Assembly: GCA_964402425.1 (NCBI GenBank)
Contig: CAYOCD010000001.1
Coordinates: forward strand, 82,934-146,933
Direction of reading: 5' to 3'
DNA from: an uncultured Gammaproteobacteria bacterium
Lineage (GTDB): Bacteria > Patescibacteriota > Patescibacteriia > UBA9934 > GWF2-40-263
Length of the DNA: 64,000 nt
Below are positions 16,520 through 57,714 of the stretch, piece after piece. Every line of letters starts with the position of its first letter. Positions within the stretch are counted from its first letter, which is position 1. The translations under genes and the position numbers were made by a program. Below the pieces are notes generated by a model that searched no databases, was not told where the DNA came from, and saw nothing but the letters and a program-made list of their open reading frames with translations.

Positions 16520-18148
16520 CTAGAAATTACACGCAGGAACGTCCTTGGCGGTCAGATCGTACTCGATCGTTACACCAACAACAACATTACCAGGCGTTGC
16601 TTTTTTGATTTCAATATTCGTGAAGCTGTCGATAAGCTTCACGAATGTCGTCTCGACCCACACAAACTTCGGATCGAAATCGATCTGGACGAATACACTG
16701 ATGTGTAGGGTCTTACCCTGCTTGAGTTCGGCACACACATCCGCCATGAGAGGCGAAGACGCGACCTTCTCGAACGTCATGACGATCTTCTTGTCCGCGA
16801 TCGCATCACCAAAGTAATACGCCACGCCACACGAATATCCGTCAGACTCCTTGTAGAGATCAGGGTTTGAGCATGTCATTAGGAATTTTCGATCTTCCCA
16901 CTGACACCCCTTGGCACCTTGGCAAAAGTCCTTGGTGAAATTATTACCATCTTCGCAGAGCGCGTCGGGTTCCTTGGGAGGCATCGGGAGGCCGGTGCAG
17001 GCGTTGTCTTTGCCGTCGCAGAGCTCGGGCGCGCCTGGATAGACATCCGAATCCGTGTCATCACAGTCCGCATTCGGACCAAACGCGAGCGCCATGCCAG
17101 CCGGAGCCGAACACGCGAGCGTGGTCTTAGATGTCGGGTTTCCATACCCATCACCGTCTGCATCCATGTGATAAACCATCTGCACACCATCGTCGGTCTG
17201 CCCATTGCAGTTGTCGTCGACTTCGTTGCAGGTTTCAACCGCACCGGGATGAATCTTCTTTCCGGTAACCGGCGTGTCGTTGCAGTCCGTGCTCGTGGTA
17301 GTTGCACCAACGGGCGCGTCACATGCTTCAACCTTCTTATCAGGAGCGCCGTAGCCATCGCCATCGTCGTCCTTAAAGTAGGTCTTTTTAACTTTGTCAC
17401 CATCGTCGACTAGCTTGTTGCAATCGTTGTCGACGTTGTCGCAGACTTCCGGGTTGCCCGGGAAGCGCTTGGCATCGGCATCATCGCAATCAGTGCCTGA
17501 AACAACGACACCCTTTTCAGGCTTGCAAGCCTTGACGGGCTTACTCACTGAACCATGACCATCAAGATCCTGATCAACGAAGAAATCACCCTTCACACCT
17601 TCGTCGGTCTGCCCATTGCAGTTGTCGTCGATGTCCGGCGTGTCGCAAGTTTCCTTCATTCCAGGATTGATGATCTTCAGGTTGTCGTTGCAGTCGTCGC
17701 CGTTTGCGACGTACTTCAGAGCGAAGCCACTGCACGCACCCGACAATTCACTTGCCGGATTGCCATAGCCATCACCATCATTGTCGAAATACCACGACTT
17801 CGTGGTGTCGTCGACCTTATAGTTACAGTCGTTGTCGACCTTGTCGCACTGCTCTTTTGCGTCCGGGTGGACGCTTGGAGCGGCATCATCGCAATCGTTC
17901 ATGTTCAAGACGTGCCCCGGAGGGGGCGCGTTCTTACATGTCACGTATGGCTTCGCAGGATCGCCAAAGCCATCCTTGTCGCCATCGAGGTAAAACGTCT
18001 GCTCGACGCATGGCGTCGGAGTCAGGTTGTTCGAACCTCCCGCGACGAAATCGTCATCGGCCGGAAAGACACCTGTGCCAGAGGCACAGCCAGCGATAGC
18101 CAACGCCATCGCAAGACACTGGAAGCGCAGCTTCATCGCGGTCTCCAT
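16520..18148 (-). CDS. Cys/Asp-rich repeat lipoprotein (MopE-like repeats; lipobox AIAGC).
   Basis: MKLRFQCLAMALAIAGCASG. Repeats CDxVDNDCNxKVDD and CDNVDNDCNKLVDDG. High G+C. Confidence 0.6.
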   Translation of the reverse strand: METAMKLRFQCLAMALAIAGCASGTGVFPADDDFVAGGSNNLTPTPCVEQTFYLDGDKDGFGDPAKPYVTCKNAPPPGHVLNMNDCDDAAPSVHPDAKEQCDKVDNDCNYKVDDTTKSWYFDNDGDGYGNPASELSGACSGFALKYVANGDDCNDNLKIINPGMKETCDTPDIDDNCNGQTDEGVKGDFFVDQDLDGHGSVSKPVKACKPEKGVVVSGTDCDDADAKRFPGNPEVCDNVDNDCNKLVDDGDKVKKTYFKDDDGDGYGAPDKKVEACDAPVGATTTSTDCNDTPVTGKKIHPGAVETCNEVDDNCNGQTDDGVQMVYHMDADGDGYGNPTSKTTLACSAPAGMALAFGPNADCDDTDSDVYPGAPELCDGKDNACTGLPMPPKEPDALCEDGNNFTKDFCQGAKGCQWEDRKFLMTCSNPDLYKESDGYSCGVAYYFGDAIADKKIVMTFEKVASSPLMADVCAELKQGKTLHISVFVQIDFDPKFVWVETTFVKLIDSFTNIEIKKATPGNVVVGVTIEYDLTAKDVPACNF

Positions 18149-18282
18149 TTAAAGAGTGTACTGGCGCAGGCCCGCCCGTACGTTGTTGTGTGTAGATCAC
18201 GGCCTGATTCCATGGCTTAATTAGCACTAGAATCAGCTCACAATCGACCCGGAAAAATATCATGTTTTGAGAAAAATGTCAA

Positions 18283-18413
18283 GGGAAAAGGGCGGAAGTG
18301 GCAGAAAAGGCGGAAGAGGCGGAAAGGAACACAAAGTGGGAAGCGCAAAAAAATGCGCGGAAACAGACATTCCTTTCCGCCCTTTCCGCCTCTTCCGCCC
18401 TTTCTGCCTTTCC
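18283..18413. repeat. GA-rich palindromic element A: arms of about 45 bp (GGAAAAGGGCGGAAGTGGCAGAAAAGGCGGAAGAGGCGGAAAGG / inverted copy) around a 40-nt loop containing the mini-hairpin GCGCAAAAAAATGCGC.
   Basis: Seen in sequence, between two lipoprotein genes. Confidence 0.7.
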
Positions 18414-18478
18414 TTAAAAAATGAAAAATCCCTCAGTTTCTTGCGAAACCAAGGGACGAGTTGAGGGGTCCAGGGCTG

Positions 18479-19438
18479 CTACTTGCAGTCGTGGATTTCG
18501 AGGTTGACCGAGCAGCCGCCTTCAGGGGCAGGCCACTTCTTGACGAGCTTTGTGACGTCGAGGATCGAGCCATCGCCCTTGACCACGAAGATCACGGCGT
18601 CGGGGTTGATCTTGTCGTCCATGCAGAGCCACTCGCTTGCCGGCTTGCCGTGGGCCGTGTTGAAGCGGACACCGCAGGCGTTGCCGTCGGGAACGAGCGT
18701 GAAGACGATGTTGTTGATCGACTCCTGGAACCAGACCCAGTCCTTGCCGATGTCCGCTTGCGCGTAGTACGGCACCGCCATGATCTTCTGACCCATCTTC
18801 TCAGACGGCCAGGAGACGACGAGGGCGAAATTGTCGCCGAGGAGCAGGTCGTCGAACGACTCGCGGGGGGCACAACCTTCGTCGGTCTTGCCGTCGCAGT
18901 CGTTGTCGATGTCGTCGTCACACGTCTCGGTCGCGTCCTGGTTCAACCAGAAGCCGTCGACCTTGCCGTCACTGTTGGCATCCTTCGCCGAGTCGTTGCA
19001 GTCGCCCCCGTGAGCCGAATAGCCCTTGGGAACTTCTGCACCGATGCACACGGTGGTCACTTCCTTCGACAGGCCGTAACCGTCCTTGTCGCCATCGAAG
19101 TAAACTTCTTCGGTCAGGCCTTCATCGGCATGACCGTCGCAGTTGTTGTCGATGCCGTCGCAGATCTCCACGGCGTACTTGTTCACCGCCGGGTTGGTCT
19201 CGTCGCAATCGTTGCCGAGTGCGGGCGAGAAGCCGTCGCCATCCAAGTCACCGTAGACCTTCTTGGGGGTCTCGGTCTCGGTGGGCGTGGTCGCAGCCGG
19301 CGGGTCGACAGTGCTGGTCGTCTCGTCGGTCGCACCTTGCTCGTCGTCCGTCGCATCGAAGACACCGTTGCCACTTTCGCAGGCACCGAAGGAGATAATG
19401 GTCGCGATAGCCAGAAACAGCTTGAGAAACGTATTCAT
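18479..19438 (-). CDS. Cys/Asp-rich repeat lipoprotein (lipobox SFGAC; repeats CDGIDNNCDGHADEG, DNDCDGKTDEGC).
   Basis: MNTFLKLFLAIATIISFGACESG. Paralogous to neighbouring genes. Confidence 0.6.
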   Translation of the reverse strand: MNTFLKLFLAIATIISFGACESGNGVFDATDDEQGATDETTSTVDPPAATTPTETETPKKVYGDLDGDGFSPALGNDCDETNPAVNKYAVEICDGIDNNCDGHADEGLTEEVYFDGDKDGYGLSKEVTTVCIGAEVPKGYSAHGGDCNDSAKDANSDGKVDGFWLNQDATETCDDDIDNDCDGKTDEGCAPRESFDDLLLGDNFALVVSWPSEKMGQKIMAVPYYAQADIGKDWVWFQESINNIVFTLVPDGNACGVRFNTAHGKPASEWLCMDDKINPDAVIFVVKGDGSILDVTKLVKKWPAPEGGCSVNLEIHDCK

Positions 19439-19815
19439 CTGAACTTCCTTTCCCTTGCGGGAGTCTTATCTTGCCTGACAGAACTTTCTGCCCGACCTGA
19501 CTCGACACTCCCCGCAGGGAGATTTTTTTGTTGAAACACCGGGAATCCGGGACAGCAGAGGCTTTTGAGACCCCTACGAATGTGAGTTTGGGTACTGATA
19601 CGAGAATTTCTTTCGATTTATCATCTACATCATCTAGTTCACGCAAACACACATTTGTAAGGACCTCGTTTTCAAGCCTTATTGCTCATTTAGTAACAAG
19701 CAACTATACCATAAAATCGCACTTTTGTCAAGGGTTGCTGGATGCAATTTGGAACAAATATTGGGCTTTTTTGATTATTTGGCTATTTTTGTCAGGGATT
19801 ATGAGACAAAGTAAA

Positions 19816-19920
19816 AGCTGGAGAGGCGAGAGAGGCTGGAGATGCTTGAGAGGCTTTAGAAACGCGCTTTTCCCCTCCCCTTCGGCCTCTCTCGCCTCTC
19901 CAGCCTTTCAAGCCTTCCCC
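19816..19920. repeat. GA-rich palindromic element D (GAGAGGCGAGAGAGGCTGGAGATGCTTGAGAGGC ... GCCTCTCTCGCCTCTCCAGCC). Preceded by the TTTTGTCAGGG leader motif at about 19786.
   Basis: Seen in sequence. Shares the core GATGCTTGAGAGGCTTTAGAAACGCGCTTT with element E. Confidence 0.7.
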
Positions 19921-19997
19921 CCCCTCCTCTTTCCCAAAAAAAACGACCCCACCTCAACAAAGAGATAGGGTCAGAAAGTGGGCCGAAATTGGCCGAG

Positions 19998-20963
19998 TTA
20001 CGGGGTGGGGCACGAGGCGCCGGGCTTGGCGACCAGGAAGTACGCCGAGCAGCCGCCGTCCTTGAGGACCGTCTTCACGCTGGACGTATTATACGTCTGG
20101 CCGAACAGCGTGGCCGTAATCGTGGGTTGCGAGTTGAGAACTGCCGTCGAACTTCCCATGCAGAGCCACCCTTGTGGCTGGTCCACATTGAAGCGCAAAT
20201 ACGTGCAGTTGCTCTGAGTGAGATTGCCAAGGTCGACGCTGAGCGATGCATTCATCGTCCAGGCCTGGGGCTTCCAGTCCGTGAACGAGGTATCGGGCGT
20301 AATGCCATAGCTCAAGCGGCGGTAGGCGCTGTCCGGGTACGTCACCGTGAGGGTGTTGTTGCCCGTAGGTGCCGTGCAGCCTTCGTCGATCAGACCGTCG
20401 CAGTCGTTGTCTTTGCTGTCGGCGCAGACTTCCGCGGTTGCTACGCATGGAGCGACGCAACCTTCGTCCGCCTGGCCATCGCAATCGTTGTCCTTGTTGT
20501 CGCCGCAGACCTCATTGGTCGGGACGCACTGTGCGGCACAACCTTCGTCAACCTGCCCGTTGCAGTTGTTGTCGACGTTGTCGCCGCACTTCTCCGGAAC
20601 ACCCGGATTTACGTTGACGTTGTTGTCATTGCAGTCGCCCTGCTTGGGGGCGGTACTGCAGTAGCCATCGCCGTCACCGTCGGTGCAGTTCGTCGAGACA
20701 CACTGTGACTGGTAGTCGTTGCAGCAGTCCTTGTTGACCACACACTCGGCGTCGCATTGACATTGTGCCTTGTTGTTGTACGCCGTGCCACACTTGCCTT
20801 GGCAAGTGGGCGCCGGCGCCGTGTCGGTCGAGTCGCGGCCGGAGGCCGTCGAGTCGACCGAAACGGCCGTGTCGGACTCCTCGTTGATGTCGAACGGCTC
20901 GTGAGAGCCACAGGCCGCCACGATGGCGAGGGAAAGAATCAAACAAGCGGGGATGTAACGCAT
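19998..20963 (-). CDS. Cys/Asp-rich repeat lipoprotein (lipobox IVAAC; repeats CGDNVDNNCNGQVDEGC, CGDNKDNDCDGQADEGC, CADSKDNDCDGLIDEGC).
   Basis: MRYIPACLILSLAIVAACGS. Three near-identical 25-aa repeats in tandem. Confidence 0.6.
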   Translation of the reverse strand: MRYIPACLILSLAIVAACGSHEPFDINEESDTAVSVDSTASGRDSTDTAPAPTCQGKCGTAYNNKAQCQCDAECVVNKDCCNDYQSQCVSTNCTDGDGDGYCSTAPKQGDCNDNNVNVNPGVPEKCGDNVDNNCNGQVDEGCAAQCVPTNEVCGDNKDNDCDGQADEGCVAPCVATAEVCADSKDNDCDGLIDEGCTAPTGNNTLTVTYPDSAYRRLSYGITPDTSFTDWKPQAWTMNASLSVDLGNLTQSNCTYLRFNVDQPQGWLCMGSSTAVLNSQPTITATLFGQTYNTSSVKTVLKDGGCSAYFLVAKPGASCPTP

Positions 20964-21163: not shown

Positions 21164-21288
21164 ATTTTGTCAAGGGGAAGGGCTGAAAAGGCGAGAGAGG
21201 CTTGAGATGCTTGAGAGGCTTTAGAAACGCGCTTTCTTCGACATCTCAAACCTCTCAAGCCTTTCTTACAGCCTTCCCCAAAAAAAAC
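21164..21288. repeat. GA-rich palindromic element E with leader TTTTGTCAAGGGG. Core shared with elements D, F and H.
   Basis: ttttgtcaaggggaagggctgaaaaggcgagagaggcttgagatgcttgagaggctttagaaacgcgcttt...acatctcaaacctctcaagcctttc. Confidence 0.7.
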
Positions 21289-21362: not shown

Positions 21363-22901
21363 CTACTTGGGGCCGAAGCCAAAGTTGATGCCGGCCGAGA
21401 AGGCGGCGAACGGGCTGGTATCGCTACCCTTGCCCGCGCCGTAACTCTCGACACCCACGGTCGCACGAGCTTGGAAGCCAACCTTGAAGTTAGTGCCGGA
21501 AGTCGTGGAGACGTAGGAGAGGCCAGCACCGCCGCCGCGCGAATAAGAGTTCGCGCCAACGACCGAGCCTCCCGCATCGTGCTGAAGGAACATGGCGTGG
21601 ACACCGAAGCCGTAGAGCGCCTTGAAGGTCACTTCCGCACCACCTTGGTAGGCGATGCTCGATTCCCAACCCTTCGGACCGTCATCCGCAAGCGGAAGCA
21701 GGTTGAAGAAGCCGTTGAACCGACCAGTCTCGTTGGCGTAGCCCAGGTTCAGACCGACGTAGCCACCCGGTGACGTGTTGCCACGCATCTGGTAGACCTT
21801 GCCGTTCTTGGTGACGTGAGCGTCGTGACCGAGGAGCGCTGCACCACCGAGCGAAAGCTCAACGAGGACACCCTGCTTCTCCAGTTCCGTGACGGTCGCG
21901 ATGACCTGGTCGGCCTTTGCTTCAGCTTCGGTCGAACGATCGATCGCGGCTTGCGCCTTGGTGTCGATCGCCGCTTCCGCCGCCTTCGCACGAGCTTCCT
22001 CGTTCGCGATGGCCGTCTTCTGCTCCGCGAGGGCCGTGTCAAAAGCACTAAGCTGCTCGGTGTGACCCTGCAGCGCCGCGTCGAAGGTGTTGACCTTGGC
22101 CGAAGCCGCGTCCGCAACCTTCTTCGCATCGTCCGCCGTGGCCTGAGCCTTGGCGATCGGAGCGCTGTAGTCGACGCCGCGCACTGCCTTGGCCGAAGCC
22201 TTGGGAGCGGGAGCAGCGGGATCTGCCGGCGTCACCGAGCCCGGGAGGGGCGCGGCGGCGGACGGAGTGCGACGAACAGCCTTGGCCTTAGGAGCGCCGG
22301 GGCAGGTCGGACACGCGGTGGGACGAACCTTCTTGCACTTGTCCTGATCCTGCAGCGTCGGGCTGTACGAGTCAGGAACGAAGTTCAACACTCCGTCACA
22401 ATCCACATCCACCGAACGGTAACCAGTTGCCGGAGTCAGCTTGCCACCCGTGAAGTCCACGGTGCAGTTGCCAGCCTTGCACGCCAGGATGTCCTTGAGG
22501 AGCCGAAGCTCCGAGGACGACTTGGGCGTGATCGAACGGCCGAGGCCACGCGCGAAACGCGCAACCACATCCGGACCACCGACGACGTTCAGCGACGCAG
22601 TGTCGCCGCTCGCCGTCTCCCAAGCACTCACCTTGCAGTCATTGTTCAGGCCATCGTCCCACAACTTGGGGTCGGCGGCCTCGTTGATGCCGGGGTTGAT
22701 ATCGGCATGCTGATCGTCGCAGTCACCACACTTAATGGCGCCGGGGGGCAGAACATTGCAGACAGCGTCGCACACTGCGTACTTGTCGCCATCATCATTC
22801 TTGCACTCCACCGGAGCCGCGAAAGCGGACGAGGAAACGATCGTGGCCGCGAGGGCCAACAACAACAGGGAAAACTTCTTCATCGGGAACTCCTTGGGCA
22901 T
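21363..22901 (-). CDS. Secreted protein: Cys-rich N-terminal module, Ala/Lys-rich coiled-coil, C-terminal Gly/aromatic-rich beta-strand domain of about 170 aa (possible beta-barrel-like anchor).
   Basis: Signal peptide MKKFSLLLLALAATIVSSSAFA. Middle region KAQATADDAKKVADAASAKV...EARAKAAEAAIDTKAQAAI. C-terminus has alternating hydrophobic patterns and ends FGFGPK. Confidence 0.5.
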   Translation of the reverse strand: MPKEFPMKKFSLLLLALAATIVSSSAFAAPVECKNDDGDKYAVCDAVCNVLPPGAIKCGDCDDQHADINPGINEAADPKLWDDGLNNDCKVSAWETASGDTASLNVVGGPDVVARFARGLGRSITPKSSSELRLLKDILACKAGNCTVDFTGGKLTPATGYRSVDVDCDGVLNFVPDSYSPTLQDQDKCKKVRPTACPTCPGAPKAKAVRRTPSAAAPLPGSVTPADPAAPAPKASAKAVRGVDYSAPIAKAQATADDAKKVADAASAKVNTFDAALQGHTEQLSAFDTALAEQKTAIANEEARAKAAEAAIDTKAQAAIDRSTEAEAKADQVIATVTELEKQGVLVELSLGGAALLGHDAHVTKNGKVYQMRGNTSPGGYVGLNLGYANETGRFNGFFNLLPLADDGPKGWESSIAYQGGAEVTFKALYGFGVHAMFLQHDAGGSVVGANSYSRGGGAGLSYVSTTSGTNFKVGFQARATVGVESYGAGKGSDTSPFAAFSAGINFGFGPK

Positions 22902-23291: not shown

Positions 23292-23440
23292 ATTGGGGTC
23301 TTCTGAAGCTCTTTTCCCAAAAGAAAAACAGCCCGTCGGACAACAAAAAGAACGCTCCTATGGCTTGGGAGCAGCGGTTTCCGCGTCTCCTCCTCGCGAA
23401 AACATGCCAGTCCCAAGCTCTAAGAGGGTTTTTTTATTTG

Positions 23441-23930
23441 GGAAGGCGAGAGAGGTTTGAGAGACTGGAGATGCTTGAGAGGCCGAAGAGAAGGCCAAAA
23501 AAACAGTCAATTGTCTGGATAGACGATTGACTGTTTGTATTTTCTAAGAAGAAAGTCTGCTCTGGCTCTAATATCTTCCAAAAATTCGTAGGATATCTCA
23601 TCAAGAAAACCTAATGAATATGAGATCTCGAGAAAAAAAGCACATTCTTTCGAAGAACCCTCTGCAATATTTAAATATCGAATAAAGTCTTTTTGTGATT
23701 GTGTAGCTCGTCCTTCAACAATATTCGCAGGAATAGAGAGTGCTGCCCGACGCAACTGTGACGTAATTCCAAATATCTCCTGTTTAGGAAATGACTCTGT
23801 TTTTTTATAAACCTCAATGACAAACTTATTGGCTTCCTGCCAAGCTAATATTTTATGATACGGCTGTTGTTTCATATTTTCTTCGGCCTCTCAAACATCT
23901 CCAACCTCTCTCGCCTCTCCAGCCTTCCCC
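23441..23930. mobile_element. Putative full-length member of the GA-rich palindromic element family. Its inverted arms (23441-23506 and 23881-23930) flank a four-helix-bundle protein gene as cargo. No transposase.
   Basis: The reverse complement of the right arm, ggggaaggctggagaggcgagagaggttggagatgtttgagaggccgaag, nearly equals the left arm gggaaggcgagagaggtttgagagactggagatgcttgagaggccgaag. Confidence 0.35.
23507..23875 (-). CDS. Four-helix-bundle protein of the 23S rRNA intervening-sequence protein family (TIGR02436/PF05635-like).
   Basis: LAWQEANKFVIEVYKKTESFPKQEIFGITSQLRRAALSIPANIVEG...IRYLNIAEGSSKECAFFLEISYSLGFLD matches the characteristic pattern of this family. Recognised from memory, no search run. 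Confidence 0.6.
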   Translation of the reverse strand: MKQQPYHKILAWQEANKFVIEVYKKTESFPKQEIFGITSQLRRAALSIPANIVEGRATQSQKDFIRYLNIAEGSSKECAFFLEISYSLGFLDEISYEFLEDIRARADFLLRKYKQSIVYPDN

Positions 23931-24571
23931 TACTCTTCATGCACAAACTGGTGACGGCGGCGGATGCGCTCAAGATGTAAAAGGATATTTGCGACTCCGA
24001 CCAATCCCCCAAGAAAAAACCCAGATGCAATGTTTGCAAGAATATTTGGCTTCACAGGCCACTGTGAACTAAGCGGAGCATCAACCAAACGCATTTGGAC
24101 ACTTCCACCAGACGTATATTCTTTTACATGCTGCGTCAGAACAAACGCGATTGCACGAACCAATTGTTCTGCTTGTGTGACATCTGTGTGATAAGCGGTA
24201 ATGGTGAGCAATCCTGTTCCGTGCGAGACGGCTGCATCAACCGTACGCGCCCATTCGCGACGTCGTTTAATATCATCTTTTGGAAAGTTCTTTGTATCAA
24301 CTTGGAATCCACTTGAAAATACTTGATCAAAGAAAGTACTTGTATACACAATTGTTGAAAGATTTTCTGCAATGCGCTCTTCTGAACGTGAGGCTGTATA
24401 GGCATCAACAGATGATCCAAGATCTTGCAAAATAAGCAATCGAACTGTGGACGAATATCTGAGAGGTTGAATAAACGAAATAATAAGTGCAAGGACGAGT
24501 CCAAGCAATCCAAACAAAATAATTGTTTGCCATCGTCGAAAAAGTTCTCGTGTGTAGTTAAAAGAAGCCAT
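23930..24571 (-). CDS. Wzz/chain-length-determinant-like protein (N-terminal TM, periplasmic domain, C-terminal TM).
   Basis: Two terminal TM helices (IILFGLLGLVLALIISFI and IASGFFLGGLVGVANILL) with a 150-aa domain between them. Its stop abuts a repeat arm. Confidence 0.45.
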   Translation of the reverse strand: MASFNYTRELFRRWQTIILFGLLGLVLALIISFIQPLRYSSTVRLLILQDLGSSVDAYTASRSEERIAENLSTIVYTSTFFDQVFSSGFQVDTKNFPKDDIKRRREWARTVDAAVSHGTGLLTITAYHTDVTQAEQLVRAIAFVLTQHVKEYTSGGSVQMRLVDAPLSSQWPVKPNILANIASGFFLGGLVGVANILLHLERIRRRHQFVHEE

Positions 24572-30393: not shown

Positions 30394-30834
30394 TTATTGA
30401 CGCAAATGTTCTTTCATCTGACGATCAACATCGCGCTTCTTAATCGCTTCTCGCTTTTCATATTTCTTTTTTCCCTTTGCAACCGCAAACACAAGCTTTA
30501 CCAAATTTCCTTTTGTGTAGATACGAAGCGGAACAAGTGTTAATCCTTCTGTCTGTTTTTTCCCCATCAGTCGTTTGAGCTCACGCTTGTGAACCAAGAC
30601 TTTTCGGTCTCGATCTGACTGAACCTCTTGATTCCCTGCTGGCTTATATGGACTGATGAATACATTCTTAAGCCAGAGTTCGCCGTTATGAATATGAAGA
30701 AAGGCTCCCTTTAACTGGACATGCCCGGCTTTTGCCGACTTCACTTCCCAACCCTGCAACACCAAACCTGCTTCAAATTCTTCTTGAAGATCAAAGTCAA
30801 AACCAGCTTTTTTGTTCGTGGCGAGGCTCGGCAT
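30394..30834 (-). CDS. smpB: SsrA-binding protein SmpB. Likely start MPSLATNKKA at 30834; the listed ORF extends 20 codons upstream.
   Basis: LATNKKAGFDFDL...EAGLVLQGWEVKS...GAFLHIHNGELWL...RDRKVLVHKRELKRL...LTLVPLRIYTKGNLVKLVFAVAKGKKKYEKRE is a textbook SmpB pattern. Confidence 0.8.
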   Translation of the reverse strand: MPSLATNKKAGFDFDLQEEFEAGLVLQGWEVKSAKAGHVQLKGAFLHIHNGELWLKNVFISPYKPAGNQEVQSDRDRKVLVHKRELKRLMGKKQTEGLTLVPLRIYTKGNLVKLVFAVAKGKKKYEKREAIKKRDVDRQMKEHLRQ

Positions 30835-30909
30835 ACCAGCAGAGTATAACGAAACGCTTGATATTTTGAAAGTTCTTTTGTATAGTAGCGACAACTTATT
30901 CTATCAATT

Positions 30910-30958
30910 CGGCCTTTTAAGCCTCTCCGGCCTCTCTCGCCTCTCAAGCCTTTCCCCA
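30910..30958. repeat. Solo arm (pyrimidine-rich strand CTCTCGCCTCTCAAGCC) of the GA-rich palindromic element family, in the smpB/infC divergent region.
   Basis: cggccttttaagcctctccggcctctctcgcctctcaagcctttcccc. Responsible for the spurious N-terminal extension of the infC ORF. Confidence 0.6.
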
Positions 30959-30961
30959 CCT

Positions 30962-31513
30962 ATGCGCATCCACCGCCACCGTGCCCGCCAATCCAACCTT
31001 CATGTCCAAAAATTTCGGATGAATGAAAAAATCACCGCACCGGAAGTGCGTGTTGTTGATGATGAAGGAAAACCACTCGGAATCCTGAAAACAGAGGATG
31101 CAATCGTAATTGCAAGAACAAAAGAACTTGATTTGGTTGAGGTTTCCCCTAAAGCAGAACCTCCTGTTTGTAAAATTCTTGATTACGGGGCATTTAAATA
31201 TCAAAAAGAAAAAGAAGCCCGAAAACAAAAAGCTCAATCAAAAGAAGTAGACACAAAAGGCATTCGTCTCACCTTCCGCATTGGAGCTCACGACTTTGAC
31301 GTTAGATTAGCTCAAGCGGGAAAATTTCTTGACCGAGGCGATAAAGTAAACGTAGAACTTCCATTACGAGGTCGTGAAAAAGCCCACAAAGACGTCGCGG
31401 AAGCGGTCATTACACGTTTTGTCGAAAGCTTAAAAGCCAAATACAACCTTCGTATTGAACAGGCGGTCACCTATCAAGGTGGAAAACTTACGGCTATCGT
31501 AACAAAAGCCTAA
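30962..31513 (+). CDS. infC: Translation initiation factor IF-3. Start uncertain: ATG at 30962 or ATG at 31019 (MNEKITAPEVRVV). IF-3 genes often use unusual start codons.
   Basis: INEKITAPEVRVVDDEGKPLGIL...ARTKELDLVEVSPKAEPPVCKILDYGAFKYQ...RLTFRIGAHDFDVRLAQAGKFL. Followed by rpmI-rplT, a conserved operon. Confidence 0.75.
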   Translation: MRIHRHRARQSNLHVQKFRMNEKITAPEVRVVDDEGKPLGILKTEDAIVIARTKELDLVEVSPKAEPPVCKILDYGAFKYQKEKEARKQKAQSKEVDTKGIRLTFRIGAHDFDVRLAQAGKFLDRGDKVNVELPLRGREKAHKDVAEAVITRFVESLKAKYNLRIEQAVTYQGGKLTAIVTKA

Positions 31514-38138: not shown

Positions 38139-38292
38139 AAGGAAGGGCGGAAAAGGATGAAAAGGCGGAAGGGGCGGAGAGGAACGTAAATGGCATGCAG
38201 GGATGATAACAAAAAAAAGCAAAAAGAAAAAACGGATAAACCGTTCTTCTTCTCATTCCTTTCCGCCACCTCCGTCTTTTCCGCCCTTTTTC
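38139..38292. repeat. GA-rich palindromic element B (GGCGGAA type): arms GGAAGGGCGGAAAAGGATGAAAAGGCGGAAGGGGCGGAGAGGAACG / TTCCTTTCCGCCACCTCCGTCTTTTCCGCCC. The loop contains the mini-hairpin AACGGATAAACCGTT. Abuts the ftsZ stop codon.
   Basis: Seen in sequence between ftsZ and nrdR. Confidence 0.7.
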
Positions 38293-43666: not shown

Positions 43667-44299
43667 CTATTTTTTTGGAATTTGAAGGAGTTGACCTGGC
43701 CCGCTTGGGTTATATCCTTTTTTAACCTCGTCACCATCTTTGTAGGTATCGCCATCTGTGTCTGGATTCAATGGGTTGGTTTGATAAACATCTACTTCTT
43801 CTTTATCAAAGAGTCCATCTGCATCTGTGTCTGGACTATTTGGATCTGTTCCCAAAAGAGCTTCACGTGCGTCCGGCAATCCGTCTTTGTCTGTATCTGC
43901 CGTTTGATCTTCTGCAGGAACTTGCACAGCCTCTTCCAAAGGAGCTGGTGTTGGCGTTGGTGTTTCAATCTCTGATGTTTCTAGTGACTCAGATGTAACA
44001 ACAGGAGCCGGTGGAGTCACAGGTGTACGAGAATTCAAAATTCTCATGGAGAGAAAAAACGCGAGTCCGACAACAGCGACAATCGCCACAAACAGAACGA
44101 TGAGCTTCCAAGGAAACGCTCGTTTCTCCCCCATTTCCGATCCCATCTCCATGCTTTTCATGGATGGCGGTTGAGGAGTTGCCATTGGTGCAAGAGAAGA
44201 TTCTGATTGCACACTCATGGTTGGAGGATTCATTTGAGGGGCGGTCGCATCGGTCTGAGCAAAAACATCTTCAGGTTCCTTTTGGAGTTCGTCGAACAT
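43667..44299 (-). CDS. Single-pass membrane protein with DxDxDG Ca-binding-like repeats (paralog 2).
   Basis: TM WKLIVLFVAIVAVVGLAFFL. DTDKDGLPDAREALLGTDPNSPDTDADGLFDKEEVDVYQTNPLNPDTDGDTYKDGDEVKKGYNPSG. Confidence 0.55.
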   Translation of the reverse strand: MFDELQKEPEDVFAQTDATAPQMNPPTMSVQSESSLAPMATPQPPSMKSMEMGSEMGEKRAFPWKLIVLFVAIVAVVGLAFFLSMRILNSRTPVTPPAPVVTSESLETSEIETPTPTPAPLEEAVQVPAEDQTADTDKDGLPDAREALLGTDPNSPDTDADGLFDKEEVDVYQTNPLNPDTDGDTYKDGDEVKKGYNPSGPGQLLQIPKK

Positions 44300-44354
44300 A
44301 TGTGGGGGAAAGTAGTAAGTAGAGAGAAGAAAGTAGAAAGGGGGAAAATGGAAA

Positions 44355-45162: not shown

Positions 45163-48100
45163 TTAATTTACGGGACAATAGGTGAATTCAATATTACTCA
45201 GAGTGACAGATGCACTTGTTGGATTCAATTTAACATTAATTGGAAGAGAAAATGGAGCATCCTGACAGATAAACTTGCTTGGAAGTGGCAACTTCAATCC
45301 GTTTCCGATCTCAAGCAAAGAAGTTCCTGTTTGTGGAAGTGTATATTTTCCATTTGCATCTTTAAATGTTGCTGCAATTAACGACACGGTATTTCCAGCA
45401 TTCAAAAGTGAACTTGATGAAGAAACATTTGCCGTAATTCCGACCCCAACTCGGCATGCTGGAAGCAACAAACTTGCACGATCTGGTGTTTTTCCTTCTG
45501 TATTTTCCAAACTAAATAAGGTGATACTGCTTGATGGTTGAGATTCGGCTACATTTCCTTGCACTTGAAGAGCAACTTTTTGGAATGCGGTCGGACAAGA
45601 ACTATTACAACTCGATGAACAAGTTGGCAGTACACATGTTCCTACACCTATACATTTTTCATTATTAGCCGTATTGCAATCACCGTTCCAGTTACAAGTA
45701 CTACCGGATGTTTCACAATATCCATCACAATTATTTTGATAAGCTGCGCATTTTTTTCCATTCTCCCCACGAAGAGAGCCTCCATTACAAGTACCCACAA
45801 TGCGACATGAATACCCCTTATCACAGGAAGTTCCGTGCCACGTTGATGTTGAACCATCATCTTTCTTCCCGTTAGCTGTGCCATCTGAGGTTAGTCCGAC
45901 ATCTTTTGAATCACACGGACCCTTTAGATCCATTTCATCCGCACTGATTGATTTTGTACATGTTCCATTTAACTTCGTACCATCACAATATTCGCCACCA
46001 TTGATTGCTCCATCTCCACAATACGGACCAGATTGTGTTTTGTACTGACAGTATTGATTACAGAAGTTACAGCTTGATCCGTACGCCGCATTACAAGCGA
46101 TTCCGTTTGCCTTACCGCTGTCACACGACTCGATTCCAACGTTTACAAAGTTATCGCCACACACGTTTGTCTTACAGGCGTTTGTACAACTGTCATTGCT
46201 GGAACTGTTTCCGTCATCGCATTCTTCTGTTCCTTCTTTCTTTCCATTACCACATTGTTGTGGACCACCAGCACACGCACCCCATCCACCACCGGCAAGA
46301 TTTGTGATCCACTGACAGCTGTTTGAAGATGGATTGTTGTAATTCTGACAGGTGCGTGTTCTGGTGAGGTCATATTGTTCTGCTGAACATTTTCCACCTG
46401 CCCCACAAGAAGCATCATCTGTACAAATCGCACCAATTGTTGTTCCGGCGGTACAAATCTTTGCTTTTGCACAAGCCGCAACAGGACATCCAGATGAAGC
46501 CGTACATTTTGTTCCATCGTTATTCAATGCACCAGCATACGTTTCTGTATTTCCATCGCATTTTTCTGATGAATCATTAATCAAATTGTCCCCGCACATT
46601 GGTCCTGGAGCTTTACACTCTGCAGTACAATTTTTTCCATCTTTGTCGTAATTTCCGTTATAGGTTGCACAATGATTACCGGACTTTGCCCAACTTGTTC
46701 CCGCAAGTGTCGACCAATTTGATGGCGTTCCGCAATCACATTGTTCATTCCCCGCGAGGTACCCGTCACCACACGCAAAATTAGAAACAACTTTACAATC
46801 TTTACCACAGTGGCCGTACGTACCATTCAGCGCAGTACCATCATCACAGACTTCACCAAGCGCTTTATCAATCACACCATCTCCACAAGAAAATGGCTTA
46901 CATGTTCCACCGGCTTTTTTTGCAGCATCCTCAGCGGCTGCATCTGTTGCATAATTTTTACAATCATTTTTACAAGTAACATTGATGAACCCTGCGTTGT
47001 TTGCGCAAGCAATCGATTTGACTTCACCAATTTCACAATCTTCACCCACACCCTTTACTCCATCACCACAAATCGTAGAGCTTCCAAAAACAGTTGCGTT
47101 GCAATAAGCGGAAGTTGAGACAAATCCTGGCAGGAGATTTGCAGGAGCTTTCCCGTTTAGATAAGCCGCTTTAATGGTCGCTTGATCACCAGATGCGTCT
47201 ATTTTATTGTTCCACGCAACCGTACTGTATTCCAATTCTGTTGTGAGGACATATGCTTCCCCACCAAAATTTTGATATCCGTACACATGAGAACCGTTTG
47301 GACAAAGAGATTTTCCTTGTGCGCTATTCCAACACGTTGCGGAATCATATCCTTCACCTACATTTTTACACTGTCCCCAGAATTGGTTGAGCGGATCTGT
47401 TGGCAGAGCACCCCCAACCTCATTTCCAAGCGTACTGTTCCAAGATGGCCAGATACTGTTACTTACAGAAGGAACAAACGTTCCTGCTTGAATAGTTGGA
47501 TAGCTCGGGATACATGTTTCTGTTCCTGGACAAGCAGAATTCGCTCCTGTACCCGCTTTACTGTTTTGAGAAACAACACAGGCTTGACTCTTGGTTACCG
47601 CACAACGACCGTTTGTGTTTCCGTATTTTTCAAATGTGGTCACCATCTCTGTGACATCTGTCAATCGTTTTGTGTCTCTGATCAATTTTTGTTTGTCTGC
47701 ATCACAGAACATGTTTGGATCAGCTACTGCACATTCCGCATTTCCTAATTTTGGATTACAAACTTTATCCGAAACGGAACATTTTCCATCTGGCTTACAT
47801 TGATCCAAACAGTCTCCATCCCATGAACATGTGGTAAACGGACCACTTGGTGGAACATAGGCACTTCCACTCTTACAAAGACCAACGTGCGACACTCCAG
47901 TTACACCAGTATCATTCGCGTTTAATCGGAAATTTTGTAAGACAAGATCAAAAATCTGTTGCGCATCTTTTCCGGCATCTGCGTTAAATGAGATAACGTA
48001 AATATTTGAATAGAGATTTGATCCGTTGCGATTTGCCGCTGCTGCATAAATCGTTGTTCCTGTTTGCACAGCTTCATATCCATCCAACTTGGCCGCCTTT

Positions 48101-51100
48101 GGTATTCCAGTAAATCCCTGTGATTTAAACCAAGCCATTGGTGACAGATAATTTGGATTTGAGAGAACACGCACTCCAATAGAGTCTTTTGTTCCAGAAA
48201 CGCGGAACACTAATTCTTTCAAGACATCTGTTGTAATGAGTTGATTTACATCTGGTGTTGCATCTGTTGGAGGAAGTTCAAGAGCAGGCAGCTTCTTTCC
48301 TTCTTCTGGTTTTCCAACATCTCGACAATAGAATAAGGAGAAGTTTGTGTTCGCTCCATTTTCAACAAATGGAACCCCGTGTGCCAAATCCGGCCATGGA
48401 TTTTCACACAAGAACGCAACCTCTGACACATGACCAGATACAGCCGAACCAACCGTTGATTTTGCACTTATTGTATCTGCAGAGATTGTTGCGGTTGCAA
48501 TAACATTTCCTGAACCGTTCTTTCCAAGGGCTTTATATTGCGCTGTTTGTGCGATGCTTGGTCCAACAATTCCTAAAATATCCATTTTAGTTGCCGTATC
48601 TTTCACGTTTGCAGCCCAGACCCACGTCCAAGCGTATACACCTGAAATTGAAGAGATTTCTTCAAGTGTTCCTGTGTTTTTGCGATAAGAAAACGGCTTT
48701 GTTGTAAATGCGTGGACTTCATTTGTCTTAGAATAATATCCGGGGCTCTTTGAGAGATACGAAGGTGGAGTTGGGGTGATTCCACCATCTGTTGTTTCCA
48801 CAACGTCAAGCAAACAAACATCCGCACCGGTTGTGAAAGTACTTGAGAGAGAAACAACGGAGCAAGTTGTGCCATTGTCACCAAGACAAACACTGACCTT
48901 GTTTTTACTAAGAACTCCCTTTGACGTTTCTCCGTTTTTTGTTTTTACCGTCAATTTATATTGCGCATTTGGAAGTAATTGTTCTGTGTAACGAAGATAA
49001 ACTTGATGTGTACCTGGGTCTTGTTCAAACGAAACAGGAACAAAACATTGCGTGGTTGCATTTGCCATGGCAGATTGCCCAAAAGCATCTTTAACCCAAT
49101 TCCAAACAAAAGAGAAAATATTTTTTGCACGCATGAATCCAACAGGCTTTGGATAATACGGACAGTTAACTGCTGTTACAGCCTCATTGATACCTAAACT
49201 ATTTTTCTTCGTAATCAGCTCAAGCTGAAGATTTGGATCTGTTTCTGCCGCACTTAATTTTCCATCTCCGTCAGTATCTACGGAACCAAACGTACTCGCA
49301 TCCATTTCTTGATCAAACGCAATGGAAATAGCCGTATTGCGACAAATGTTTGTTGCATTATTTCCAGGAACCATCGCTGTAATCGTTGGGCGCTCAAAAC
49401 AACACTTTTCCACACCGCAACCAAGCGATTTTGAAGATTCCCCTGTTTTTGTTCCACACTGATTATCGGAAGCACAGGAACAAAGCAATTTCACTTCGCC
49501 TGTACCTGTCTTTCCTCCAACGGAGACCTGTACATTTGAAACAGCATATCCGTATGTTGCTTTTTTCTCATCTTTTTCTACCTCAAGCGACGCTCCACTT
49601 GAAACTTCTGCAACACCATAAGCACCAACGGTATATGTTGCGGAAGCAGCTGCTTCACACTGCTCGCCCGGTTCAAGAGCTCCCCCATTTCCACAAACAG
49701 AAGGGATAGCATAATTTGGATTTGAACCCATCTTTAAACAACTCTTTGAACATCCAGGAGCGATAGATCCAACACCAAGATCACATCCTGCATCTTCCCC
49801 GGAATCTGTAACACCGTTTCCACAGACAAATTTTGCTGGATCTTTTCCAGGACTTGTTCCGCGATTCAAACAAAGATCTGTACAAGCCACTGTGGTACGA
49901 ACCTCACATTTTGAACCATCCTGACACGCTGCACCACCAATGGTACAGACAGCCCCATCCGCACAATGCGTTCCTGGATCACATGTCTCTCCAACACTAG
50001 CAATTCCATCTCCACAACGTGCATTTGAATACGCAACAACACCTCCTTCAAACAAACAATTTGAGGAACATCCATCTCCTTCTTTTATGTTTCCGTCATC
50101 ACAGGCTTCCCCACCATTTGTCTTTGAGTTATCAGCAACTCCGTCTCCACAAATAGATTTAATAGAGGAAACCCCTTCAAACAAACACTTTGCAGAACAT
50201 CCATCTCCACCCAAAACTTTTCCATCATCACATTGTTCACCCGCATCCACAACGTTATTTCCACACGTTGGAGCAACCGTTCCTTCTTTCAAACAACTTG
50301 ATGAACAGCCGTCTTTGTCATTTGTGTTTCCATCATCACAAGACTCCCCGTAATTTACTGCCCCATTTCCACAAACAGCTTGTCCGACTTTGATTGGGTT
50401 TCCTGTATACAAACAGTTTCCTCCACACATTTTTGGGAGTGTGTTTGTAAGAGCAAGCGAACCATTATTCAACAAAAACGCAGTGATCTCATTGTATTTA
50501 TGATCTGCTCCTATTACATACGATGCTGCACCGATCTTGTTTGGTGTATCTGTTGCACCCCATCCACCCCATCCACTTGCTTGCAAGGCTTGCCCTGTTA
50601 CAGAACATTCGTCCGGAGCTCCATATGCAATCGCGTTGTATTCTTGACGTTGACCAACATATTTAAGTATTGCCGACTTTGGAGAAAGCCCAACACGATC
50701 AACGGCACATGAGGTGAGCGAATCTTTTGACTTAAATTTCCAAGAAAACGCACCTGGATAAAATTTATTTTCAGGAGTTCCGTAATTAGATCCAGATTCT
50801 GAAAGAGATGAGGACACACTCGATTTAATCCAATCTGCGACAACAACTCGATACCACGTATTTGACACAAACGCAGCGCCATCTGTCACAATTGATGCTC
50901 GATATGTTGCAGAATCATATATGACACTCGTAACATGATTCCATGCGGTCAACTGACTCTTTTCACAAAGGGCATTTTCACATTGAAAAATACGAATTGC
51001 ACCCGCAATATTAAAGACAGCTGGATTCATTGGAACATTAAATGAAACCCACGGCTTCACGTTTGCACATGCGGCAGAACAGTTTGGAAAATAATCACTT

Positions 51101-56737: not shown

Positions 56738-56809
56738 GTAATATCAAAAATACGACACAAACATTGTATCGTATTTTTCTTCAATCGAATAGAAAAAGAT
56801 GGGGATAAA

Positions 56810-56946
56810 GAGTAAGGCTATAAAGGCAATAGAGGCTTGAGATGCCGAAGGGAACAAAAAAAAGAACGCGGTCAACGCGTTCTTTATTTTCTTGTTTCTT
56901 TTTTTCGGCATCTCAAGCCTCTCCAGCATCTCTCGCCTCTCTAGCT
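56810..56946. repeat. GA-rich palindromic element H: 16-bp perfect inverted repeat GAGGCTTGAGATGCCG/CGGCATCTCAAGCCTC plus CTCTCGCCTCTC arm. Loop carries the hairpin GAACGCGGTCAACGCGTTC. Abuts the stop of the yqeY-fusion gene.
   Basis: Seen in sequence between 56737 and 56941. Confidence 0.7.
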
Positions 56947-57714
56947 TATCTGATTCAATACCGCCGTTGTGACAAAAAACAACGCCACAACAACTCCCAT
57001 ATTCATAAATCCACCCATGATTTTCTGTTCCGCTTTATCTCTTACAACATCTCGTGCGGACCCAACAGTCATTTCAATCCCACCACGAATAATTTCAATG
57101 ATAGAAAAAAGTCCGGCGAACAAGAACATGACACGCACAAGACGAATCCCCATTTCAAGATATGGCAAATACGAATAGGTTCCGAATTCTGGCAATGTTA
57201 TCATGCCGATTTCCGCATGCGCAGAAGAGACGACTATCGTATTTACCAAAACAGCAAAGATAAACACTCCAAGCAACTTCTCAACGAGTCCTTTCACACG
57301 TGTACCGTCAGCACGCCCTGCAACGGCCTTCATGACAAATCCCATCGCCTTGCCCATGTCCGCTTTTGATGCAGCTCCCGATTGCAAAACAGCTTCACGA
57401 ACCACCATTTCAAGATCGGCATCAGACAATTCTGCTGGCATGTATTTTTTTAACACTTCAAGCTCAAGTTTATTCCCTTCTGCAAGATCGGCTCGTCCGC
57501 CAGCCTCAAACTGATCAATCGCTTCTTTCAATTGTTTTGCCTGAGACTTAATCACATCCGATACCTCCGCATCCGTAAGCGGACGCATAAGATCAATCTC
57601 TTTATTTTTAAGAGCAGACTTAAGCATGCGAAGTGTGGAAAGTGTTGATTCGTCTTTTGCACGCATGGCGTCTTTAAGGTCTGAACCGATTTGTTCAAGA
57701 AGAGTCATAGACAA
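56941..57714 (-). CDS. yqeY: GatB/YqeY-domain protein (N-terminal 150 aa) fused in frame to a C-terminal signal-peptide-like segment plus a third copy of the two-helix hairpin domain. Possibly two genes sharing a frame (internal GTG start).
   Basis: YqeY pattern LKDAMRAKDESTLSTLRMLKSALKNKEIDL...LTDAEVSDVIKSQAKQLKEAIDQFEAGGRADLAEGNKLELEVLKKYMP. The tail LLGVFIFAVLVNTIVVSSAHAEIG...IRLVRVMFLFAGLFSIIEIIRGGIEMTVGSARDVVRDKAEQKIMGGFMNMGVVVALFFV aligns with the N-termini of 54827..56737 and 45163..54816. Confidence 0.6.
   Translation of the reverse strand: MSMTLLEQIGSDLKDAMRAKDESTLSTLRMLKSALKNKEIDLMRPLTDAEVSDVIKSQAKQLKEAIDQFEAGGRADLAEGNKLELEVLKKYMPAELSDADLEMVVREAVLQSGAASKADMGKAMGFVMKAVAGRADGTRVKGLVEKLLGVFIFAVLVNTIVVSSAHAEIGMITLPEFGTYSYLPYLEMGIRLVRVMFLFAGLFSIIEIIRGGIEMTVGSARDVVRDKAEQKIMGGFMNMGVVVALFFVTTAVLNQIS

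Follow-up and report, generated by a model that had tools for sequence, protein, structure and literature searches.

A four-helix-bundle protein gene enclosed by inverted tandem-repeat arrays in a Candidatus Uhrbacteria genome: a probable insertable hairpin cassette

The window analyzed here is a 64,000-nt stretch (44.8% G+C) of contig CAYOCD010000001.1, from a Candidatus Uhrbacteria population genome (Candidate Phyla Radiation, CPR; Patescibacteria), and our subject is a minus-strand gene for a small four-helix-bundle (4HB) protein that lies between two inverted arrays of 9-nt tandem repeats. On balance, this feature is probably an insertable hairpin cassette of the intervening sequence (IVS) type, made up of the 4HB gene and the two inverted repeat arrays and co-transcribed with its host operon. 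The gene and its arms form a unit that is found again in orthologues, in paralogues, and in the majority of distant homologues, and a gene junction that is otherwise intact can either hold this unit or lack it. The organization of the arms as tandem 9-mer arrays and their occurrence throughout the family go beyond what a first-pass annotation of this DNA had observed.

Structure of the Cassette

The cassette and its immediate surroundings comprise the following features:

23930..24571, minus strand: Wzz/GNVR-like upstream host gene, 213 aa; the 5′ arm directly adjoins its stop codon
23877..23929, minus strand: 5′ arm (sense orientation), purine-rich; GGGAAG followed by GCTGGAGAG GCGAGAGAG GTTGGAGAT GTTTGAGAG GCCGAAGAA
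23507..23875, minus strand: 4HB protein gene, 122 aa; PF05635/TIGR02436
23501..23536, no strand assigned: 16-bp terminator-like hairpin covering the last 4HB codons, after which a sense-strand T-run leads into the 3′ arm
23440..23492, minus strand: 3′ arm, pyrimidine-rich on the sense strand; five 9-nt units, outer terminus CCTTCCC
23341..23440, no strand assigned: large hairpin directly downstream of the cassette, with one A-run and one T-run; conserved in the orthologous locus L010

The arms (23440–23492 and 23877–23929) are inverted relative to each other, 53 nt long, and separated by 384 nt. The first-pass annotation had called them near-perfect inverted copies; the inverted arrangement is as described, while the complementarity is only 83%. 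Each arm is built from a GGGAAG terminus and five GCNNGAGAG-like 9-nt units, the innermost being GCCGAAGAR, and the period-9 arrays were also called independently by Tandem Repeats Finder (TRF). The ORF at 23507–23875 is the sole open reading frame (ORF) between the arms, just as the earlier annotation had it.

The neighbors of the cassette are the Wzz-like gene and a 512-aa ORF. At its outer end, the 5′ arm directly abuts the stop codon (TAG) of the Wzz-like gene, while its inner end lies 1 nt from the 4HB ATG, with the innermost unit overlapping the ribosome-binding region of the 4HB gene. As a consensus scan found no sigma-70-like promoter between the Wzz-like gene and the 4HB gene, the two are likely co-transcribed. 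The large hairpin at 23341–23440 probably acts as terminator of the operon. The sense RNA of the element is predicted to fold with a closing stem of ~50 bp at −175 kcal/mol, versus −122 ± 5 kcal/mol for shuffled sequences (z = −10.2). A hairpin also occurs in L010 at the place equivalent to 23501–23536, with a different stem sequence. Searches of Rfam found no known RNA family on the element and no rRNA within the window.

The exact 4HB protein was found on 22 independent freshwater and groundwater metagenome contigs, in an identical context each time, and the cassette is thus no assembly artefact. The closest named relatives of the protein belong to Uhrbacteria metagenome-assembled genomes (MAGs). 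No further 4HB gene and no xseA were detected in the window by tblastn.

We did note an upstream ORF inside the 5′ arm (23880–23905, MFERPKKI*), the TGA of which overlaps the 4HB ATG (ATATGA). It is kept at the orthologous locus (L010 2975–3003, MLERPKRDI*) and is not found in the related loci L014 or L018.

Orthologues, Paralogues, and an Occupied or Empty Gene Junction

The orthologous cassette (L010–L013) encodes an 89% identical protein at the same position and between the same arms, which in L010 are 51 nt long and 86% complementary. At L010 2928–2993, tandem repetition has tripled the inner half (33 nt, GGGGAAGGTTGGAGATGCTTGAGAGGCCGAAAA) of the 5′ arm, indicating that the arms expand via duplication of multi-unit blocks. 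The genome of the orthologue also holds a 65% identical paralogue between xseA and xseB (L014–L017; also L101–L104), with arms of GGTCGGAAA/GGTCTGAAA units. In L014, these arms are 44 nt long and 86% complementary, and the left arm, but not the right, has been homogenized to six identical units (GGTCGGAAA ×6); L101 has the same cassette layout. A further copy, 76% identical, follows the RF-1 gene (L018–L020) and has arms of GGCTATAAA-type units (33 nt, 91% complementary in L018). Thus, the first-pass annotation, in asking whether other copies in the lineage are flanked by such repeats, pointed in the right direction: L010, L014, L018, and L101 all are, as are 59 of 78 distant homologues (below). 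Across these loci the design is conserved, namely inverted 9-mer arrays, an inner unit abutting the ATG, and CCTTCCC at the outer end; the sequence of the unit, in contrast, is locus-specific. Separately, a group II intron domain match (42.7 bits) lies at L024 60–139, ~2.3 kb upstream of an Uhrbacteria 4HB cassette.

The xseA/xseB junction is seen both with and without the cassette. When metagenomes were scanned with L014's xseA protein, 40 loci were retrieved. In two of these (L106 and L108), which are close relatives of L014 (xseA 91% and xseB 95% identical), the ATGA overlap of xseA and xseB is kept without any insert, and the same uninterrupted overlap is seen in ~10 more distant relatives; this is the ancestral state. 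In L014, L101, L105, and L107, the arms and the 4HB gene sit exactly at the ATGA overlap, with both the xseA stop and the xseB start restored. No intermediate with the hairpin alone at this junction was found among 34 related loci. In the xseA tree, the empty allele falls among filled ones, with the lineages nearly equidistant, and the history of the junction may be one of either a single gain with one precise loss or repeated gains. This polymorphism was seen for the paralogous xseA/xseB copy only, and not for the window copy.

In six loci from other CPR bacteria (L118, L119, L123, L127, L128, and L137), unrelated inserts occupy the same xseA/xseB junction. Among them are different palindromes of ~120–130 nt, two other small genes, and one CCCCTTNNN-type array standing alone, and this junction seems to be a place where insertion recurs.

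The Four-Helix-Bundle Protein and Its Conservation

The 4HB assignment made in the first pass was borne out by profile hidden Markov model searches. The protein matched PF05635 over residues 9–101 (E = 5e-31; 107.5 bits, cut-off 33.8) as its single Pfam match, and TIGR02436 at E = 3.5e-30 (104.4 bits, cut-off 24). Sequence comparison suggests a structural resemblance to 2GSC (XCC0516, pentameric, five chains; E = 7e-21) and, at E = 5e-7, to 2RLD. The conserved motif of the family (Y, E, SQLRRAA, N, EG, E) is retained, and all residues invariant in an alignment of 46 homologues (A1; Y23, E33, S39, Q40, R42, R43, S47, N51, E54, G55, and E77) are present in the window protein.

We know of no catalytic activity in this protein family. 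No transposase domain and no HUH/Y1 domain, as in REP-associated tyrosine transposases (RAYTs; REP, repetitive extragenic palindromic), was found in the protein, including in a Pfam search at lenient E-values, and nothing useful emerged among remote Pfam relatives at E ≤ 10. No PADLOC defense model matched at E ≤ 0.1. Against the NCBIfam equivalog for Avd, the accessory protein of diversity-generating retroelements, the protein scored 19.1 bits (NF033474, cut-off 80), and no reverse transcriptase domain or template/variable repeat pair was found among the 4HB neighbors.

The 4HB protein is under purifying selection, with dN/dS values of 0.058 between the window and L010 (dS 1.09) and 0.044 between L014 and L101. 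Between the window and L010, the arms are 87–89% identical, compared to 54% at the four-fold degenerate sites of the ORF. Identity so far above that of four-fold sites indicates either constraint on the arm sequence or its homogenization with the dispersed family of elements described below.

Survey of Homologous Loci Across Phyla

We fetched 80 loci encoding 4HB homologues from many phyla, and scored 78, the best matches to a CPR-centered alignment, for flanking inverted repeats by aligning the 130 nt that precede the start codon with the reverse-complemented 130 nt that follow the stop codon. The median scores were as follows:

4HB loci (n = 78): 35.5
Random same-length placements (n = 770): 15
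Real neighboring ORFs at the same loci (n = 363): 16

The score exceeded the 99th percentile of random placements in 60/78 loci and the 95th percentile of real ORFs in 59/78 (Mann–Whitney p = 3.5e-30). The window locus itself scored 61, against 99th percentiles of 23 for random placements and 45 for real ORFs.

In these loci, too, the arms are inverted tandem arrays, with units that vary by locus (such as GGCTGTA, GGAGACA, GTAGCGG, AATCGTG, and AGGCACTA). Arrays were called by TRF in 59/64 upstream and 56/64 downstream flanks, with a period of 7 in 37 loci, 8 in 10, and 9 in 11 (all but one of the latter from CPR bacteria), and with a copy number of 4.3–4.4 in the median and 4–5 in the mode. 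The 5′ arm was purine-rich in 62/65 loci. Among the heptamer units, a consensus of G-Y-Y-A-G-N-A emerged that is weak yet significant (5.3 bits versus 3.8 ± 0.3 for the null), while any common consensus of the 8-mer or 9-mer units was not above the null, with too few loci for either.

None of the 78 loci lies in or adjoins rRNA, and the rRNA location for which the family is known is thus the exception. Instead, the cassettes sit between protein-coding genes. The upstream neighbor was co-directional in 64/71 loci and the downstream neighbor in 59/71, values that carry no baseline, so that any enrichment is uncalibrated, and adjacent bacterial genes are often co-directional anyway. The 5′ arm begins a median of 4 nt past the upstream stop codon (≤10 nt in 37/49 loci), and the downstream start codon, an ATG in 47/58 loci, follows the 3′ arm at a median of 10 nt. 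With both codons this close to the arm ends, the base of the stem would bring the host stop and start codons together.

Extra arrays of the same unit occur within ±4 kb of the 4HB gene in 10/64 loci, and clear cargo-less hairpins are found near the gene in L071 (Verrucomicrobia MAG), L084 (Pyrinomonadaceae MAG), and L099. In Nostoc punctiforme, a RefSeq-annotated 4HB gene has five GTCAGRA units ahead of its ATG. Two of three cyanobacterial plasmid copies carry arrays, one with a five-heptamer 5′ arm and a short 3′ arm, the second with a 3′ array only, next to insertion sequence elements. Plasmid-borne 4HB homologues come overwhelmingly from heterocystous cyanobacteria (Nostoc, Calothrix, Trichormus, and Scytonema), the lineages in which the short tandemly repeated repetitive (STRR) heptamers were first described.

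Cargo-Less Hairpins and Solo Arms in the Window

The arm motifs occur 5–7 times in the window, compared to zero in 100 shuffled versions. The following elements belong to the same 9-mer family as the cassette arms (no strand assigned):

19813..19925: cargo-less palindrome; fold z −3.2
21174..21280: cargo-less palindrome; fold z −7.2; with a terminator on one side and the next gene's TTGACA box on the other
56809..56950: cargo-less palindrome; fold z −9.6; small terminator-like hairpin in its loop
30905..30957: solo pyrimidine-rich arm, just upstream of the likely infC start codon

In agreement with the first-pass annotation, the cassette arms align with the three short palindromes, and with the solo arm (alignment A2; mean column identity 71%, consensus GGGnAAGGCTnGAGAGGCGAGAGAGGCTGGAGAGGCTTGAGAGGCCGAAGAAAAG). 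The palindromes fold far more stably than shuffled sequences. The loops of the cargo-less hairpins in the window are ~5–60 nt long. An element with reshuffled units is found in L010 at the position orthologous to 21174–21280. The solo arm follows a promoter-like TTGATA-17-TATAGT (region 30869–30965) and would constitute the leader of infC; the longest ORF called there (30812–31513) probably over-extends infC across the arm.

A second family of elements was also found (no strand assigned):

18283..18412: palindrome, unit GGCGGAARA; fold z −8.8
38140..38290: palindrome; fold z −6.5; begins 2 nt past the ftsZ stop codon
40480..40528: solo arm, directly past the ftsA stop codon, followed by a terminator-like hairpin

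The GGCGGAARA unit is one base off the GGTCGGAAA arms of the xseA/xseB 4HB paralogue in relatives of the window genome; as no matching 4HB gene lies in the window, the cognate gene of this second 9-mer family cannot be identified there. For several elements, the start coincides with a stop codon or is only a few bases away from one (that of ftsA, ftsZ, or the Wzz-like gene).

Other features of the window include a purine-rich period-7 array (44299–44345; GAAAGTA ×4.7) with G-runs on either side, which lies between two minus-strand genes and has no inverted partner that we could see. The 512-aa ORF next to the cassette (21363–22901) has no Pfam match, is unusually Ala/Pro-rich, and, judged by eye, is apparently G+C-rich. 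In the region 16520–20963, three secreted-looking proteins with Cu-binding MopE motifs are encoded (one with an additional Somatomedin B domain), with palindromic elements between them, and an 81-nt tandem repeat lies inside a gene at 20380–20588. A very large minus-strand ORF (45163–54816, 3217 aa) is also present.

Proposed Mechanism and Alternative Readings

We propose that the cassette, lying at the junction of co-directional host genes, is probably part of their transcript, in which the arms would pair into a stem of ~50 bp, looping the insert out and rejoining the host stop and start codons. By analogy with the ORF-bearing 23S rRNA IVSs of the same protein family, this stem would be a likely substrate of RNase III. 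More speculatively, a pentameric 4HB ring could bind the 4–5 tandem units of an arm, and such binding could control translation of the 4HB gene itself, or the fate or spread of the hairpin. Binding of the repeats by the protein is attractive because of the narrow unit number, the pentameric protein, and the conservation of the arm sequence. The first-pass annotation's hint that the protein acts in the element's own propagation or in RNA processing may hold. The cargo-less hairpins may derive from the cassette, or the cassette from them.

Several observations weigh against this reading. The cassette encodes no enzyme for movement, and together with the element at 21174–21280 it is syntenic with L010 at a dS of ~1, with no sign of recent movement at this locus. 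No target-site duplication was found at the window copy, and the result at xseA/xseB is ambiguous: the filled site has the boundaries GTCTGA ... CTATGA versus GTATGA in the empty site, which could be a short target duplication, but the left copy belongs to a repeat unit. The terminator-like hairpin and T-run ahead of the 3′ arm imply that many transcripts may end before the stem can form, and the asymmetry of G-U wobbles (88 sense, 65 antisense, and 152 transversions) favors pairing in the sense RNA only weakly and is too slight to distinguish selection on RNA from selection on DNA. In the survey, the 78 loci are no random sample of the family, about a quarter of them have no significant flanking repeat, and the third cyanobacterial plasmid copy has no arrays, so the rule has exceptions. 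Finally, the loops of the cargo-less hairpins in L071, L084, and L099 show no similarity to the adjacent 4HB gene beyond that of shuffled controls.

A bolder reading, which we entertain as a tentative possibility, is that the 4HB proteins specifically partner a new class of selfish elements that have no transposase and consist of dispersed inverted arrays of 7–9-nt tandem units. The pentamer would recognize about five units and promote the maintenance, copying, or insertion of hairpins at gene junctions, while the stem would hide the insertion from the host operon.

Somewhat unlikely, in our estimate, is a resident host function in which the 4HB pentamer is a sequence-specific nucleic-acid-binding regulator, the arrays at its own gene are autoregulatory, and the cargo-less hairpins are its regulon or structural sites. 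Such a regulator would fit the conservation of arm sequence beyond pairing (87–89% versus 54% at neutral sites), the 4–5 units per arm whatever the unit length, which suit a pentamer, and the overlap of the innermost unit with the 4HB ribosome-binding region. At least one short element keeps its orthologous position in a diverged genome, and in Geobacter, paired five-heptamer arrays were independently taken by the authors as sites of a global regulator (PMC2700814). However, gain or loss at the xseA/xseB overlap involves the arms and the gene jointly, homologous cassettes lie inside rRNA genes (PMC4990558, PMC11270868), the units differ across paralogues and phyla while the protein motif is nearly invariant, and the cassettes occur in unrelated operons with no functional theme. 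The regulator is only partly a rival, since binding of the repeats by the protein is compatible with a selfish cassette too.

We give still less credence to the possibility that hairpins arise and spread alone, by slippage or some unknown host process, and that a separate 4HB cassette enters their loops as it does the loops of rRNA helices, the arms being outside the moving unit. The numbers would suit such landing pads, given that cargo-less hairpins outnumber 4HB copies (three hairpins and one solo arm to one in the window), and that one of the 186 arrays of Xanthomonas campestris (with 70 cases of inverted pairs) is at XCC0516; in addition, the loops hold no gene remnant, and the arms of 4HB copies resemble the local hairpin family. 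Against this, the empty xseA/xseB site is devoid of any hairpin while the filled sites have arms and gene, no intermediate was found in the 34 related loci, and the inner arm ends abut the ATG and the stop codon with no loop sequence left.

The proposal of the first-pass annotation, that the short elements and the 4HB unit stand in the relationship of a miniature inverted-repeat transposable element (MITE) to its parent, survives in part. The shared arms, the polymorphic unit, and the cargo-less hairpins of the same unit beside 4HB copies in several phyla speak for it; the lack of a transposase, of a clear target duplication, and of gene remnants in the loops, together with the age of the compared elements, which are old residents, speaks against it. 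Its corollary, that the short elements are deletion derivatives, finds no support, the loops having no similarity to the gene. In its conventional form, a MITE family whose movement depends in trans on a transposase gene located elsewhere, with the 4HB gene as a passenger in one copy, this explanation is very improbable. Long and short copies do share terminal inverted repeats, and a presence/absence polymorphism exists, but an association of 4HB genes with inverted arrays in 59/78 loci across phyla is unexpected of a random passenger, the arm units vary by locus, unlike the conserved terminal repeats that a transposase recognizes, target-site duplications are not clear, and no transposase was seen among the window genes examined, in a screen of the window that was not exhaustive.

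Ordinary intergenic hairpins (terminators or REP-like mRNA stabilizers) flanking the gene by chance are scarcely credible: although the short elements lie between terminators and promoters, some with small terminator-like hairpins, the arms stand on either side of a single gene with ~380 nt between them, unlike the geometry of a terminator, and the pattern recurs in unrelated phyla with flanking-repeat scores far above those of the 363 neighboring ORFs.

Implications

PF05635/TIGR02436 is a very large family of small proteins that takes its name from the few copies inside rRNA genes. The typical copy is instead a hairpin-enclosed cassette wedged between operon genes, with arms of preferred unit number and fixed polarity, and the whole unit may be present or absent at an intact gene overlap. 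Such an arrangement suggests how an insertion could be tolerated in translationally coupled operons, with the stem rejoining the stop and start codons. It also brings isolated puzzles together in one testable hypothesis, namely the nature of rRNA IVSs, the over-representation of intergenic heptamers, and the ligand of the 4HB pentamer, for which tractable models are available in Xanthomonas (XCC0516 and the GGGAATC arrays), Nostoc punctiforme, and Geobacter.

If 4HB proteins were indeed dedicated partners of the arrays, this would explain the origin of ribosomal IVSs with and without an ORF, as well as the excess of intergenic heptamers in Xanthomonas (GGGAATC), Geobacter, Nostoc/Calothrix (STRR), and Beggiatoaceae (TAACTGA), and would give a function to a very large family of proteins of unknown function. 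The family-wide hairpin-array architecture is apparently undescribed: we found no published link of the 4HB family to tandem-repeat hairpins in the literature searched, the coverage of which was incomplete, so that an earlier description is possible.

Comparison with Known Systems

The closest parallel is the ORF-bearing 23S rRNA IVS of Leptospira, Coxiella burnetii, and others, in which an S23p protein (PF05635) is likewise the sole ORF product, terminal inverted repeats pair into a long stem around the ORF, and the ATG is closely preceded by an AG-rich region and by short tandem repeats (heptamers in Coxiella). In Coxiella, a 28-bp stem arises from the terminal inverted repeats, the IVS is cut out by RNase III, and there is an AG-rich leader as well as tandem GACAGAT heptamers that vary in number between strains (PMC4990558). 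Such ORF-bearing IVSs are regarded as selfish and horizontally spread, and the ORF, according to Ralph and McClelland (1993) as relayed in PMC4990558, might serve mobility. In CPR bacteria, 16S and 23S rRNA insertions sometimes carry an ORF of the PF05635 family (PMC11270868); the rRNA inserts of PMC2672173 bear transposases and are not relevant to the cassette. The cassette differs from the 23S IVSs in its location between protein-coding genes, shared by all 78 loci, in that both arms are full tandem arrays (of 9-mers here), and in the strong purifying selection on its protein, whereas the Coxiella ORF is decaying. RNase III excision, demonstrated for IVSs, would apply to the cassette by analogy.

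Like a RAYT gene among REPs and REPINs (paired REPs forming a hairpin), the 4HB gene is a single-copy gene between inverted copies of a repeat that is dispersed genome-wide as paired hairpins, and different gene copies go with different repeat families. Genes flanked by inverted copies of a dispersed repeat are also found in the other phyla and at XCC0516. RAYTs are HUH tyrosine transposases with a known DNA-cleaving activity, and REPs are single imperfect palindromes; the cassette gene, in contrast, encodes a 4HB protein with no HUH/Y1 domain, and the arms of 4HB loci are tandem arrays of 7–9-nt units.

A resemblance to bacterial MITEs that are processed as RNA is also apparent, these being small palindromic intergenic elements. 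The Correia elements of Neisseria, for example, are MITEs of this kind, co-transcribed with their neighbors and acted on by RNase III. MITEs nevertheless have conserved terminal repeats, defined target duplications, and a transposase-bearing parent, none of which was found for the cassette.

The arms are also similar to the dispersed heptamer arrays of Xanthomonas, Nostoc, Geobacter, Beggiatoaceae, and the cyanobacterial STRR sequences, which have short purine-rich units, usually 4–5 per array, and are intergenic, often in convergent pairs, at operon junctions or start codons. In Xanthomonas (GGGAATC) and Nostoc (GGGGAYT), dispersed tandem heptamers, often in convergent pairs or at gene junctions, were left unexplained, and the X. 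campestris catalogue holds 186 arrays with 70 cases of inverted pairs (PMC4692102). Array number 15 in its supplement (GGGAATC-type) overlaps the start codon of XCC0516, the 4HB protein that has been crystallized, and the authors are silent on the overlap. In Geobacter, paired sets of five MTYCTGA occur at operon junctions (PMC2700814), and their reverse complement, TCAGRAK, fits our G-Y-Y-A-G-N-A consensus; in Beggiatoaceae, the dispersed heptamer is TAACTGA (PMC4679880). These reports tie the arrays to no protein, whereas here they bracket a 4HB gene, with a unit of 9 nt rather than 7. In a figure legend of PMC10910872, "23S rRNA IVP" is listed with domains newly associated with CRISPR; it is our conjecture that array finders could mistake tandem arrays flanking 4HB genes for CRISPR-like repeats.

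Finally, the 4HB protein may be set beside Avd, from which it differs in its score below the equivalog cut-off and in having no reverse transcriptase or template/variable repeats beside its gene. The two nonetheless share a homologous pentameric four-helix-bundle fold, with XCC0516 forming a ring of five four-helix bundles (PMC10053308), and since Avd is a scaffold that binds nucleic acid and reverse transcriptase, binding of RNA or DNA by the 4HB protein would, by analogy, be plausible.

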